Origin: a virus
Taxonomy: Duplodnaviria; Caudoviricetes
IMG/VR virus record: IMGVR_UViG_3300037440_000558
Span: 1-64,000 of that record
DNA: 64,000 nt
Reading direction: 5' to 3' (one strand)
Shown piece by piece: positions 16,175-31,775 of the stretch. Within the stretch, counting starts at the first letter, position 1. Each line of letters begins with the position of its first letter. The notes under the pieces were generated by a model. The model was not told where the DNA came from. It ran no database searches and saw nothing but the letters and a program-made list of their open reading frames with translations. The translations under genes were made by a program, and so were the position numbers.

Positions 16175-16948
16175 ATGGCACGCCTAACTCGGAGTCTCCG
16201 CCGTGGCCGCAGGTGGAACCCGGCTGACCACCCGAGGAACCTCAGAAACGGCCGGTTCGTCCGTAAAGGCACTGGCGCAGCCACTGACTGGGCCGAGCAG
16301 ATCTCTGACAAGATCGGCAGCAGCAGACCCGGACCCGAACGTAGCAGCGGTGGGCCGGACGACGTCGCCATCCGCAACGCCTACGACGCCCTGGCCCGCG
16401 GCGAGGGCGCATCGATCGATGCCCCCCAGCTTGACGAACTGCTGCACGCACTGACCGACCCCCCGCCGCAGACCAGCGCCAACCTTGCCCACCTGGATGT
16501 CGGCGGTTATGGGACCATGTTCGCTACCGACAAGGCCGACGCACTCGACCGGTCCAAGATGCCACAACTCGGCACCAGCGAAGCTGAGATGCGGCCGTTC
16601 CTGGACCTGCTCCAGTCCAAAGGTGTCCAAGTCCGGATCGCCGAACTCGACCCGACCACCCTCCGCCCATCGCAGACGGAGATCTCCGGCGCCAAAACTG
16701 GGAAGATCGCCAAATCGATGGCCAAATCTGGCTGGCTCCCCGGTGGGTTGTTAGTGACCTCCGGCGACGGGTACGTGGTCGACGGACACCACCGGTGGTC
16801 TGGTGCCGCCGCAGTCCGGGCATCCGGCGTCCGCCCGGATATGACCATCACCGGGTTGGTGGTCGACGCACCGATCGACGAGGTCCTGCAACATGCGATA
16901 TCAGTGGCGTCGTTTGAGCCGCTCGAGTTCGAACGCCCAGGGAAGTGA
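16175..16948 (+). CDS. HPR-tagged protein 1 with ParB/Srx-like domain
   Basis: TAGACT-N7-ATG; RRWNPADHPRNLRNGRF tag; LRPSQ...VVDGHHRW ParB-like motif. Confidence 0.8.
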   Translation: MARLTRSLRRGRRWNPADHPRNLRNGRFVRKGTGAATDWAEQISDKIGSSRPGPERSSGGPDDVAIRNAYDALARGEGASIDAPQLDELLHALTDPPPQTSANLAHLDVGGYGTMFATDKADALDRSKMPQLGTSEAEMRPFLDLLQSKGVQVRIAELDPTTLRPSQTEISGAKTGKIAKSMAKSGWLPGGLLVTSGDGYVVDGHHRWSGAAAVRASGVRPDMTITGLVVDAPIDEVLQHAISVASFEPLEFERPGK

Positions 16949-17175
16949 TGACAATGGTGACCAACCGCAAGTTCAGCCCGCCGGCCGGGGAACCGGTCGA
17001 CCTGAGTTCGAAGCCGCCCGGGCCGCCACCGGAACCGGGGATGGTGTGGTTCGACAAGAAACACGGCTGGCGGCGGGTGGTAGTGGACGACCCGGAAGAC
17101 CGGAAGCCACTGCCGAAACCGAAGCGGTGGGATGACCGGGTGTCGGAGAAGATGGGACGACGCAGGCGGAAGTGA
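16948..17175 (+). CDS. small Pro-rich protein with C-terminal W..RVSEK.G motif
   Basis: TGATG coupling; ends KPKRWDDRVSEKMGRRRRK. Confidence 0.6.
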   Translation: MTMVTNRKFSPPAGEPVDLSSKPPGPPPEPGMVWFDKKHGWRRVVVDDPEDRKPLPKPKRWDDRVSEKMGRRRRK

Positions 17176-17241
17176 CAGTCAGACGTTACTGGGAAGGTGA
17201 TACGCTGACGTTGATCACCTGCGAATCTTCTGGAGGAGCCC

Positions 17242-17523
17242 ATGGCAACCCCCACCCTCGGCCAGGTCGTGCACTACCAACTGGGCGACACCGACGTCAA
17301 CTTGATCATCAAACGCCGGGTCGATCTGAAAGCTGCCGGCGGCGGTGTCGTCGGCAATCCGGTCTCAGCTGGCGAACCCTACCCGGCCACCGTCGTCCAG
17401 GTGTTCGGTGACGACCCGTATGTGAACTTGCAGGTCCACCTGGATGGCTACGACACCTACTGGGCCACCTCCCGGCGAGAGGGCACCGGACCTGGCACCT
17501 GGTGTTGGCCGCCTCGGGTTTGA
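17242..17523 (+). CDS. conserved actinophage hypothetical protein
   Basis: PTLGQVVHY...PATVVQV...VNLQVHLDG...W.WPPRV motif; SD GGAGGAG. Confidence 0.75.
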   Translation: MATPTLGQVVHYQLGDTDVNLIIKRRVDLKAAGGGVVGNPVSAGEPYPATVVQVFGDDPYVNLQVHLDGYDTYWATSRREGTGPGTWCWPPRV

Positions 17524-17578
17524 CACCTGCTGCGAGGCACTTAGAAATGGGGGTGGTCGGGAGTGGTCAGTTCTAGGG

Positions 17579-29030: not shown

Positions 29031-29767
29031 GCCGGTGGGACCCGGCTGACCACCCGCGGGACCCGCGGGATGGTCGGTTCGTCGACCGGCTCAAACTAGC
29101 CGGCCGGATCGTCCTGGACCCCGGGCAACGTCTGATTGCCTCCAGTGTCAGCAAGAATTCCAGTCCCAACGATGTCGTCATGGCTGTAGTCGCCAGCCCA
29201 GACAGACCCGAGATCCGGTTGGGGGTGGTGAACCACGAAGACACCCGGAGATGGTCAGCAGCCAACCGGGGCAGCACCGCCCGCCTAGATCTGGAGGCAG
29301 CGACCCGCCTGCTCCGTGCCCTCGACGAGGCCGAAACCGCTGGGGAACAGCACCGACAGGAGTTTCGGCAGACCGCAGACCGGTTGGATGCTGAGGCAGA
29401 GAAACTGCGCCGCCGCCAAGGTTCGGCGTCGGACCAACAACTCCAGCAGATCCAGGAACGGCTGGGCCAAATCGATCTCGAATACCTGGAATCAGATCCT
29501 ATGTTGGCTGAGGGAACCGTGGAAGGTGCCGGGTGGGGTGATATCGTCTGGCAGGTGGACGGCGTGGACGACGCTGAGGGCGGTTGGGATCTGTCATTGG
29601 CGGTCCGCCCCACCAGCGTGGCAGACTGGTCCATGGATGCAGCCATAGGCAACGAACAGGAAGCTAACCTGCAGCAGTCGGACCTGCGGCGGTTCCGGCG
29701 AGCGTTGGAGACCGCGATTGCCGCAGCGGGCGGTTGGGCACAGCGGATCTCGGACCAGATAGGTTGA
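29027..29767 (+). CDS. HPR-tagged protein 6 (coiled-coil)
   Basis: MSRWDPADHPRDPRDGRF tag; ends GWAQRISDQIG. Confidence 0.75.
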   Translation: MSRWDPADHPRDPRDGRFVDRLKLAGRIVLDPGQRLIASSVSKNSSPNDVVMAVVASPDRPEIRLGVVNHEDTRRWSAANRGSTARLDLEAATRLLRALDEAETAGEQHRQEFRQTADRLDAEAEKLRRRQGSASDQQLQQIQERLGQIDLEYLESDPMLAEGTVEGAGWGDIVWQVDGVDDAEGGWDLSLAVRPTSVADWSMDAAIGNEQEANLQQSDLRRFRRALETAIAAAGGWAQRISDQIG

Positions 29768-30783
29768 TGCACCCGTTCGGGGAAGTCCACGCCGACCAAA
29801 CCTTGCAATATGAACTTGAGGTTGCCCGGCAAGTGACCGCCCCAGTCGACCAGCAGCTACAGCAGTTTGCCAGACAATCCGCCGCCGCCTACGTGGTGCT
29901 GACCGGCGGGTTGGACCGGCCATTAGCCGACCACCAGGCGACCGGGCTGCGCAAACTACTGCTGTGGCTGCTGGATAACCTGGTTATCCGGGCAACACGC
30001 CGGTTATACCGGTACATCTCCGGTGGCATCGACCTCGGGTACCGCCAGGCCACTGAGCTCCCACACCGGGCTGGCATCCCACTCCCACCCCGCCGGGACG
30101 GTCTGGGCCGCGAGCTGATCCACGCTATCAACCAGATGGACGAACGCGCCAACGGGCTGATCCGCAACACTGCCGCGCAGCTCATTCGGGCGCCGCTGCG
30201 CCACTGGGACGATACCAGCCGGGTGGTTGCCAACACCCGCCGCGCTCAGAACACCGTCGAGCAGACTACCCGGTGGGCGGCCAACCGGGCGATTTCCAAC
30301 ACCATCCGTGACGTAGCCATGGACCTGGGCGCCCATGTAGTGTGGGTCGCGGAACGCAACGCCTGCCTGCATTGCCTGGCCTACGCCGGTGAGGTCGTCA
30401 GTGGCGACGGGTGGTTCCCCGGCGGGTTGACCTTCTACCGGGACCCGAGTGGTCTGTTGAAACCGGTCAGCACCGAGCCGGTGTGGTCGCCGCCATTGCA
30501 TCCGAATTGCAGGTGCGGCTTGGAACTGTGGGCCGGGTATGATGTCGAGCGGTGGGGGCCGGAAGCTGTGAGTTTGGTCGGTATCCCGCAGGTGTTGAAG
30601 CGGGAGGCGCAGCGGTCGGTGCTACGTGGATTAGGCGGGTTCAACAGCGAACCGGCGCGGCTGCGGGCTGCGGATGGGCTGCTCGTGCAAGCTGGGCTGC
30701 TGTTGGGGTCGTCGGTGCTCCGCCGCGCCCGGGAGGACATCGACGCGGGCGAGTTCCTATCAACCAGTCGGGTCCGCCGTTAA
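29767..30783 (+). CDS. MuF-like minor head protein (no toxin extension)
   Basis: VWVAERNACLHC...PPLHPNCRC MuF core. Confidence 0.85.
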   Translation: MHPFGEVHADQTLQYELEVARQVTAPVDQQLQQFARQSAAAYVVLTGGLDRPLADHQATGLRKLLLWLLDNLVIRATRRLYRYISGGIDLGYRQATELPHRAGIPLPPRRDGLGRELIHAINQMDERANGLIRNTAAQLIRAPLRHWDDTSRVVANTRRAQNTVEQTTRWAANRAISNTIRDVAMDLGAHVVWVAERNACLHCLAYAGEVVSGDGWFPGGLTFYRDPSGLLKPVSTEPVWSPPLHPNCRCGLELWAGYDVERWGPEAVSLVGIPQVLKREAQRSVLRGLGGFNSEPARLRAADGLLVQAGLLLGSSVLRRAREDIDAGEFLSTSRVRR

Positions 30784-30878
30784 CCGGTTTACACTTCTGT
30801 CGGTGCTATACCCTGGTGTAAGATGCGGGTAGGTCCCCAGGGGTCGGGGCAGATGCTAGACGCAGCAGGGAGAAGAGC

Positions 30879-31775
30879 ATGTCTCATATTGGTGCTCGTA
30901 TCGGTAACAGGCTGGACGGCCAGCCGATCTGGCTCCATTCCGGTGCGGACGGCGCTATCCTGGCAGGGCCGGATGACCCGGACGCCCCCGACCCGGACGA
31001 TGACTCGGACCCAGACGACGGTGACGACCCAGACGACGATGACGACCCGGAACCGCCATCCCGGAAGGTCGCAGGCGACGAATGGTACGGACTCCGTGCC
31101 CAACTTAAACGGGCACGAAGCGACGTCAAACGCCGCGGTGGGAAACTAGACGGCGACCTGGAATGGGACGAAGCAGACACCGAGTCACCCACCCCGCAGG
31201 ACGCGCAACGGCTACGACACCTGATCAGACTGACCAGGGACCGTGCTGCGGAACTGCGGGTCGACCGCAGGGACAACCCCTCGGCGCCGCAACGACCACC
31301 CGCCGCGCAGAAACCAACCGACGCCGACAGTGCCGACGCTGACAAACTGACCCCGGCGCAGCTCGAGGCCGCACTCGAACGTGCATCCCAACGCGCAGCG
31401 CAGGACACCGAAGGCCGGTTCAAACCAGTGCTGGTCCGCGAAGCCACCAAAGCCGCGTTGGCAGCAGCCGGCTGGAACGGCGGCGGCAACGGGCTGGCCA
31501 GCGACCCGGAGAAACTCCAGGGTGCGTTGGACCGGGTGATGAGACTGGTCGACCAGGACCAGGTGGAGATCGACGCTCAAGGCAATATCACCGGCGTGGC
31601 CGAGCAGGTCGGGGCGCTCAAGGAGGAGTTCCCCGAATGGTTCCGGAGCCGCCCGGCGCGGCGACCCGCAGCCGCGGATGTCGACGGCGAACCACGCCGC
31701 CGGGCACCGGCGCCACAGCCGAAGAGCTGGATGCAGAAAGTCGATGAGCGGTTTGTCGGTGGCCGCCGCCGCTGA
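30879..31775 (+). CDS. capsid scaffolding protein
   Basis: Acidic N-terminus, coiled-coil, LKEEFPEWF motif; precedes the major capsid gene. Confidence 0.8.
   Translation: MSHIGARIGNRLDGQPIWLHSGADGAILAGPDDPDAPDPDDDSDPDDGDDPDDDDDPEPPSRKVAGDEWYGLRAQLKRARSDVKRRGGKLDGDLEWDEADTESPTPQDAQRLRHLIRLTRDRAAELRVDRRDNPSAPQRPPAAQKPTDADSADADKLTPAQLEAALERASQRAAQDTEGRFKPVLVREATKAALAAAGWNGGGNGLASDPEKLQGALDRVMRLVDQDQVEIDAQGNITGVAEQVGALKEEFPEWFRSRPARRPAAADVDGEPRRRAPAPQPKSWMQKVDERFVGGRRR

Follow-up and report, generated by a model that had tools for sequence, protein, structure and literature searches.

A tryptophan-led helix common to putative capsid cargo and scaffold tails in a clade of uncultured actinobacterial phages

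How proteins are chosen for the capsid interior is understood in very few tailed-phage systems, chiefly T4. The same question is raised by the head module of an uncultured 80-kb actinobacterial phage, represented by the 80,560-bp IMG/VR virus record IMGVR_UViG_3300037440_000558, the first 64 kb of which (64,000 nucleotides, ∼64% GC; hereafter the window) were analyzed, with all evidence being computational. Six head-module genes of this phage, lettered A to F (Table 1), bear a short tryptophan-led peptide, here called the W-helix, which the first-pass annotation had read as a possible copy of the scaffolding protein C terminus and thus as an address for entry into procapsids. Does the W-helix recur beyond chance, is it distinct from the HPR core that accompanies it in most of these genes, and does it resemble scaffold tails?

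Results

The W-helix recurs in head-module genes

All eight peptides listed in the first-pass annotation were found in the window translation at the places given. The motif that they define is real, but as first written it was one residue short; the Trp is followed by four residues and then the [SD][DE] pair, giving the corrected form W-x3-[ILV]-[SD]-[DE]-x-[IM]-G. Five window genes also contain an HPR core, W/F-x-E/P-x-x-H-P-R-x(2-4)-G-x-F, and in A, B, C, and D (core HPR-x3-G-x-F) the helix follows this core after 7 to 10 residues. The helix of gene C has one extra residue ahead of the Gly, and that of gene D is degenerate, with Thr replacing Asp/Glu. In gene F the helix lies in the last 15 residues; this gene had been correctly described as having a C-terminal motif without the HPR core, but its start had been set at 16948, whereas it spans 16945 to 17175.

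In a proteome of 65 open reading frames (ORFs) from a crude gene caller, with gene A added to the count, the pattern W-x3-[ILV]-[SD]-[DE]-[KRQA] occurs seven times, as compared to a mean of 0.22 and a maximum of three in 2000 per-protein shuffles, which answers the concern that the motif might be no more frequent than in shuffled proteomes. All seven sites fall within head-module genes. Because the regular expression was picked after the data had been seen, the independent profile tests weigh more. A 10-column cargo profile, trained exclusively on 35 N-terminal helices of other phages, ranked the helices of genes E, C, A, and D (31.6, 23.5, 22.1, and 12.0 bits) above every other one of the 16,314 positions in the proteome, with gene F (9.0 bits) and the two helices of gene B (7.2 and 6.3 bits) borderline. 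A chance origin, in which an ordinary residue pattern simply turns up repeatedly in a proteome of high GC content, would be compatible with the definition of the pattern after inspection and with the weak cargo-profile scores of B, D, and F. However, the count of seven against 0.22, the recovery of the sites by independent cargo and scaffold-tail profiles (the latter described below), and the conservation of motif position over dozens of related contigs all oppose such an origin, which the shuffles and both profiles have already effectively refuted and to which we attach almost no probability.

The W-helix is separable from the HPR core

A profile of the five window tags, searched against 1.84 billion representative proteins, returned 245 matches at E ≤ 0.001. 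These are of two kinds: short proteins (150–520 amino acids) with an N-terminal tag, and proteins of 1000 to 3800 amino acids with 3 to 11 internal HPR cores each. In 36 of the 42 short representatives, the tag runs in the order HPR core, Gly-rich linker, and then W-A-x-R-I-S-D-x-I-G. The long matches contain ART-PolyVal, MuF, NUDIX, and GNAT domains and are therefore taken to be the polyvalent proteins of Iyer et al. (2017, PMC5512222). A W-led amphipathic segment follows 33 of 46 HPR motifs in short stand-alone proteins, in contrast to 8 of 260 in polyvalent proteins of more than 1000 amino acids; the helix therefore lies outside the HPR element and was added specifically on stand-alone proteins. 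An arrangement like that of gene E, with an N-terminal HPR core and the helix at the extreme C terminus (E-type cargo), was found in at least eight lineages and at least three unrelated protein families. The earlier suggestion of a second, separable address is borne out by the occurrence of the helix without an HPR core in F-type proteins and the scaffold, by its C-terminal position in E-type cargo, and by HPR cores mostly without the helix in polyvalent proteins.

Two relatives, both complete or near-complete, were examined: G001, of 73 kb, and G002, which is 80.9 kb long and has terminal repeats. Each has ∼14 to 16 genes with a tag; the helix is present in many of them, and some have a core with an extended loop. 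This long-loop variant, [HQ]-P-R-W-P-x-G-x-P-x(3-6)-G-x-G-x-G-G-G-R-F-R, heads several further cargo genes in G001 and G002 (L056, L058, and L060; e.g., at 61438, 65189, 67895, 69923, and 70687 of G002), and a W-helix stands after some of these. In other G001 and G002 cores, the Phe of G-x-F is itself the helix-starting Trp (H-P-R-D-x-A-G-R-W-A-E-K-L-S). Small, very basic proteins of locus L049 (3041–3522 and 1771–2148; 74–125 amino acids) have the HPR core at the extreme C terminus rather than the N terminus (H-P-R-G-x-G-G-R/K-F-K/I-K-K, then stop). Among the MuF relatives at 26 loci, tags were present in the near-identical L002 alone. Gene calls in the fetched loci were crude (filtered on G+C content at third codon positions, GC3), and most contigs giving the genomic context of four tag-bearing representatives were too short to include the scaffold.

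Scaffold tails of the clade resemble the W-helix

The major capsid protein of the window belongs to a large metagenomic clade of 287 homologues (60–97% identity, mostly 60–70%), typically of ∼350 amino acids. A capsid protein with 66% identity is also encoded by a prophage within a 211-kb contig of Rhizomonospora bruguierae. Sixty-eight loci around this protein were fetched, and the scaffold was located in 66. Among 47 distinct scaffold tails of the capsid clade, 46 are W-led, and in 46 of the 47 the W-led segment begins 10 to 16 residues from the stop, with the consensus [KR]-x-W-[AEL]-[EDQ]-[QKT]-[LIV]-x-x-[RQ]-h-x-R-G. In an alignment of 29 scaffolds with a mean identity of 28%, this residue (W284) is one of four invariant columns.

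When scored with the cargo profile, scaffold tails had a median of 6.2 bits as compared to −7.9 for 811 other protein tails, and 62% of the former reached at least 5 bits versus 1.7% of the latter. The separation persisted in a Trp-anchored control over positions 2 to 10 (+1.2 versus −15.2 bits), with 80% of scaffold tails above the 95th percentile of background. The cleanest test of likeness is the reciprocal one, in which a profile was built from 42 foreign scaffold tails and run against the proteome of this phage. Its own scaffold scored 27.4 bits, followed by genes E (18.2), A (17.8), and F (16.8), with the second helix of gene B at 7.7; the best unrelated site reached 5.3 bits, leaving an 11-bit gap. 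Together, the cargo-profile, Trp-anchored, and reciprocal tests indicate that the likeness is real at the level of the family. The claim that the W-helix resembles the scaffold C terminus accordingly stands for the family on the cargo-profile and reciprocal tests, but is not supported by the tail of this phage taken alone (see below).

The W-motif is predicted to form a short amphipathic α-helix with W1, position 5, and position 9 on its hydrophobic face. In an AlphaFold2 model built from the scaffold alignment (predicted local distance difference test [pLDDT] score of 73), residues 257 to 283 are disordered, a helix spanning 284 to 296 starts at the invariant Trp, and two residues follow; the C-terminal helix region has a pLDDT of ∼70 to 86, and the disordered linker ahead of it is basic and proline-containing. 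For gene E (pLDDT 66; a shallow model, since a single homologue was found), disorder is predicted for the HPR tag and a helix for the C-terminal motif, with no sign of packing between the two halves. When the capsid protein (42-row alignment) was modeled together with the 51-residue gene A tag, in runs without controls, the scores were 0.16, 0.44, and 0.00.

Scaffold tails appear to predate the cargo helices

In one subclade, the scaffolds have W-led tails of the K-G-W-A-E-T-L-A type, and no HPR gene lies in the upstream flank of the scaffold (up to ∼9 kb); across 77,000 residues, the non-scaffold proteins of this subclade contain no cargo-type helix. The presence of W-tailed scaffolds in this HPR-free subclade indicates that the scaffold tail is older and general, and that the cargo helices are derived copies. 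HPR-bearing subclades yielded 45 strong helices, of which 39 lie no more than 110 residues from the N terminus or 24 from the C terminus. E-type cargo tails are nearer to their own scaffold tail than to foreign ones (BLOSUM sum 11.9 versus 7.9; permutation P = 0.03, n = 9), and in locus L048, the cargo and scaffold tails are identical at seven of the first nine residues. The covariation of scaffold tail and cargo motif proposed as a check in the first-pass annotation was thus seen for the C-terminal E-type tails but not for N-terminal helices (P = 0.18).

This lack of covariation among N-terminal cargo helices is one of several observations that weigh against a scaffold-tail origin of the W-helix, and the few independent lineages make the E-type covariation suggestive only. 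The scaffold of this phage is a divergent member of the family, and its tail scores 4.0 bits with the cargo profile, a value not significant on its own (shuffling the proteome would yield ∼5 sites of this kind), so that mimicry would fail on the cargo-profile score alone; the G1 and G2 scaffold tails score negative. The cargo and scaffold consensus sequences differ at position 8 (Arg/Gln in 93% of scaffolds) and position 10 (Gly in cargo). Scaffold tails are mutually homologous, and large P-values therefore overstate the independent evidence. Finally, the closest cultured capsid relatives, the Streptomyces phages Zuko and Gibson (41–44% identity), lack HPR genes in the head region and a W-led scaffold tail.

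Some of the same observations would suit a W-helix that serves as the second half of a single tag with a non-loading job, e.g., recognition by a processing peptidase, an ejection signal, or contact with nucleic acid or membrane, its likeness to scaffold tails being convergent. The constant spacing of 7 to 10 residues past the HPR core in A to D, the N-terminal helices without scaffold covariation, the weak match of the phage's own scaffold tail to the cargo profile, and the prediction of the whole tag as disordered or of low confidence are consistent with such a role. It accounts poorly, however, for helices without HPR in F-type proteins and the scaffold, for HPR cores mostly without the helix in polyvalent proteins, and for the shift of the helix to the extreme C terminus at a scaffold-like distance from the stop. 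Also opposed to it are the 11-bit gap by which the scaffold-tail profile picks cargo helices over the rest of the proteome and the HPR-free subclade, where 77,000 residues hold no helix on non-scaffold proteins. A non-loading tag is therefore regarded as unlikely.

A proposed loading mechanism

The analysis shows a motif that is predicted to be helical, is separable from the HPR core, and resembles scaffold tails at the level of the family. We propose that the W-helix may be a portable copy of the docking helix of the clade's scaffold, placing cargo on the inner wall of the procapsid, most likely on the capsid protein; we hold this to be about evenly balanced between right and wrong. Docking on the capsid protein, uptake into the shell, and ejection are inferred; the idea that cargo enters procapsids through the coat-binding site of the scaffold draws on analogy with P22 and with the scaffold and CpmB of 80alpha. 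Judging from other tailed phages, the C-terminal helix would anchor the scaffold to the inward-facing side of the major capsid protein. Putative stand-alone cargo, including the ATLF-type zincin peptidase of gene D and several proteins of unknown fold, displays the same kind of helix behind a Gly linker after the HPR core or at the extreme C terminus. During procapsid assembly, cargo helices would take some of the docking sites of scaffold tails, so that the cargo would be built into the shell interior and later exit with the DNA. The HPR core, common to polyvalent proteins, would be a different signal for another step. A polyvalent protein would need one loading device per polypeptide (often MuF), while each stand-alone module would need its own, which fits the contrast of 33 of 46 with 8 of 260.

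Alternatively, the helix could be a loading address recognized not by the capsid protein but by the scaffold tail or core (through helix–helix co-assembly), the portal, or MuF; its likeness to the scaffold tail would then reflect homotypic association and not competition for a single site. Self-association is common among amphipathic helices whose hydrophobic face follows an i, i+4, i+8 pattern, the targeting sequences of T4 work through the scaffolding core, the two helices on several cargo proteins (gene B, P0007, and P0130) would suit avidity for a multimeric core, and the consensus differences between cargo and scaffold fit partners better than competitors. On the other hand, we know of no case of scaffold tails pairing with each other, nothing points to the portal or MuF, and MuF relatives without tags are common. 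Moreover, the scaffold C terminus touches the coat protein in 80alpha (PMC5644958) as well as in P22 and phi29. A non-capsid partner is considered rather improbable, and docking on the capsid protein is retained as the preferred reading.

Extended to the large uncultured clade of ∼70- to 87-kb actinobacterial siphophages, this reading suggests a two-signal, mix-and-match filling of capsids with up to ∼16 stand-alone effectors. The helix mimicking the scaffold tail would win a place on the procapsid wall, and the HPR core taken from polyvalent proteins would serve a later step (processing or ejection); a polyvalent protein would in effect have been split into single genes, each acquiring a docking helix. 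This wider scenario is put forward tentatively, as a possibility that we would sooner doubt than affirm.

The head module and its neighborhood

The head-module genes are arranged in the order terminase-like, A, F, B, a minus-strand ORF, portal-like, PI3/PI4-kinase-like, C, D, E, MuF-like, PF06810 scaffold, and PF05065 capsid protein (Table 1); the true start of the last is probably ∼24 codons downstream of the called one. Tailed-phage hallmarks in the window comprise the terminase-like and portal-like genes, MuF, the scaffold, and a 1001-amino acid tape-measure-like gene. An effector repertoire and head-gene context of polyvalent type are also present (ATLF zincin, PI3/PI4-kinase-like protein, and MuF). 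A cultured-phage collection yielded no DNA or scaffold match to this phage, and searches of PDB sequences with the scaffold and capsid protein gave nothing relevant. Pfam at relaxed thresholds gave nothing usable for A, B, C, E, F, the minus-strand ORF, and the portal-like ORF. No member of a prohead protease family was recognized among the head-module proteins scanned; the HPR-tagged zincin of gene D (ATLF type) is the sole peptidase there.

Table 1 Features of the head module discussed in the text, with window coordinates
Feature	Coordinates	Strand	Elements and remarks
Terminase-like gene	13120–14706		
Gene A, 257 amino acids	16175–16948	+	HPR core 16214–16258; W-helix 16289–16318; then a domain matching phrog_2859
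Gene F, 76 amino acids	16945–17175	+	Without HPR core; W-helix and basic hook at the extreme C terminus, 17128–17172; GC3 0.82
Gene B, 718 amino acids	17801–19957	+	HPR core 17834–17884; tandem W-helices 17909–17938 and 17993–18022
Gene C, 247 amino acids, acidic	26618–27361	+	HPR core 26648–26692; W-helix 26723–26755
Gene D, 503 amino acids	27362–28873	+	Zincin metallopeptidase, anthrax-lethal-factor (ATLF) type, PF07737; HPR core 27380–27421; degenerate W-helix 27443–27472
Gene E, 246 amino acids	29027–29767	+	N-terminal HPR core 29036–29080; W-helix is the last 10 residues, 29735–29764
MuF-like minor head protein	29767–30783	+	PF04233, E = 0.003, below cut-off; head-morphogenesis PHROGs
Scaffolding protein (PF06810)	30879–31775	+	C-terminal W-led helix and basic hook 31728–31772
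HK97-type major capsid protein (PF05065)	31822–32940	+	Presumed docking partner

The PI3/PI4-kinase-like protein (25212–26342, plus strand; PF00454, E = 0.0011, below cut-off) has an N terminus that resembles a decayed tag (W-R-D-Q-L-R-V-P-R-G-S-E-R-G-G-E-W), with no W-helix after it, and its gene is possibly a sixth member of the tagged cargo set; kinase-like genes are found in the L121 cargo array as well. A 731-amino acid Gly/Thr/Ala-rich candidate ORF (20229–22424, minus strand), located between gene B and the portal-like gene, has a GC3 of 0.75 but a G+C content at second codon positions of 0.61, and no Pfam match. The scaffold (30879–31000) and capsid protein (31930–32010) have a common N-terminal leader, G-x-R-x-D-G-x-P-I/L, which is kept in relatives (L048, L050, and L051). 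Homology of gene F to 65-amino acid proteins encoded upstream of the scaffold in G1, G2, and L049 was not supported (BLASTP E = 4.5), these being only analogous small proteins that end in a W-helix.

Discussion

If the W-helix is an address, injected effectors in a large uncultured actinophage clade could be predicted by seeking copies of the scaffold tail. The proposed mechanism, if true, would also explain the difference between stand-alone cargo and polyvalent proteins, provide a natural tag of 10 to 13 residues for loading foreign proteins into HK97-type shells, and widen the scaffold-tail mimicry of 80alpha and CpmB from capsid-size piracy to routine cargo loading.

In P22, the C-terminal helix-turn-helix of the scaffold binds coat protein, and foreign proteins fused to it load into procapsids, so the mechanism proposed here is physically workable. 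Those cargo fusions are man-made, unlike the present helix, to which they bear no sequence relation, and the natural P22 ejection proteins are not, to our knowledge, copies of the scaffold tail. In encapsulins, a short terminal cargo-loading peptide docks diverse cargo inside an HK97-fold shell. The short peptide, diverse cargo, and inner face of an HK97-fold shell (where docking would take place here) are shared features; in contrast, the present locus belongs to a tailed phage with a terminase, portal-like gene, and tape measure, and its peptide is predicted to be helical and is W-led.

The polyvalent and MuF-fused effectors of phages and conjugative elements share with this locus an effector repertoire, a head-gene context, and the HPR core, but here the modules are separate genes, each with the W-helix that polyvalent proteins mostly lack. 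The string "HPR" has 0 occurrences in the main text of Iyer et al. (2017, PMC5512222), a text not searched for the W-helix.

The closest parallels are found in 80alpha and T4. The 80alpha scaffold ends in an 11-residue amphipathic helix and a 5-residue hook that bind the N-arm of the capsid protein, and CpmB of SaPI1 copies this helix-and-hook and competes for the capsid site (Dearborn et al. 2017, PMC5644958). As in 80alpha, a C-terminal amphipathic helix of ∼11 residues and a short basic hook follow a flexible region (here as predicted), a second protein bears a near copy (with sharing of the capsid site seen in 80alpha and supposed here), and the head genes run in the order portal, MuF, scaffold, and PF05065 capsid protein. 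The 80alpha scaffold, however, is PF14265 (gp46) rather than PF06810; its mimic is a satellite's rival scaffold that resizes the capsid, whereas here it would be the phage's own enzyme cargo; and the present helix is also N-terminal and internal. The 80alpha scaffold tail (L123, 3012–3632), N-L-A-E-I-A-R-Q-K-R-I-I-K, has A-E at positions 2 and 3 and a Q-[KR] pair in common with the clade consensus G-W-A-E-T-L-A-Q-R-A-L-R-G, a resemblance that could be accidental or could reflect convergence on a capsid site of similar type.

In T4, a short portable peptide sends the unrelated proteins IPI to IPIII and Alt into the prohead for later injection; this targeting sequence is strictly N-terminal, works via the scaffolding core, and is cleaved by the prohead protease gp21. 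The packaging of Alt is also mentioned by Iyer et al. (PMC5512222). The W-helix is likewise a short portable peptide on otherwise unrelated proteins, but it stands near the N terminus in A to D and at the extreme C terminus in E, F, and the E-type cargo of at least eight lineages, it resembles a scaffold tail, and no prohead protease was recognized among the head-module proteins scanned. The W-helix thus works, as proposed, like the 80alpha scaffold and CpmB and like the T4 targeting sequences, while being a member of neither system.

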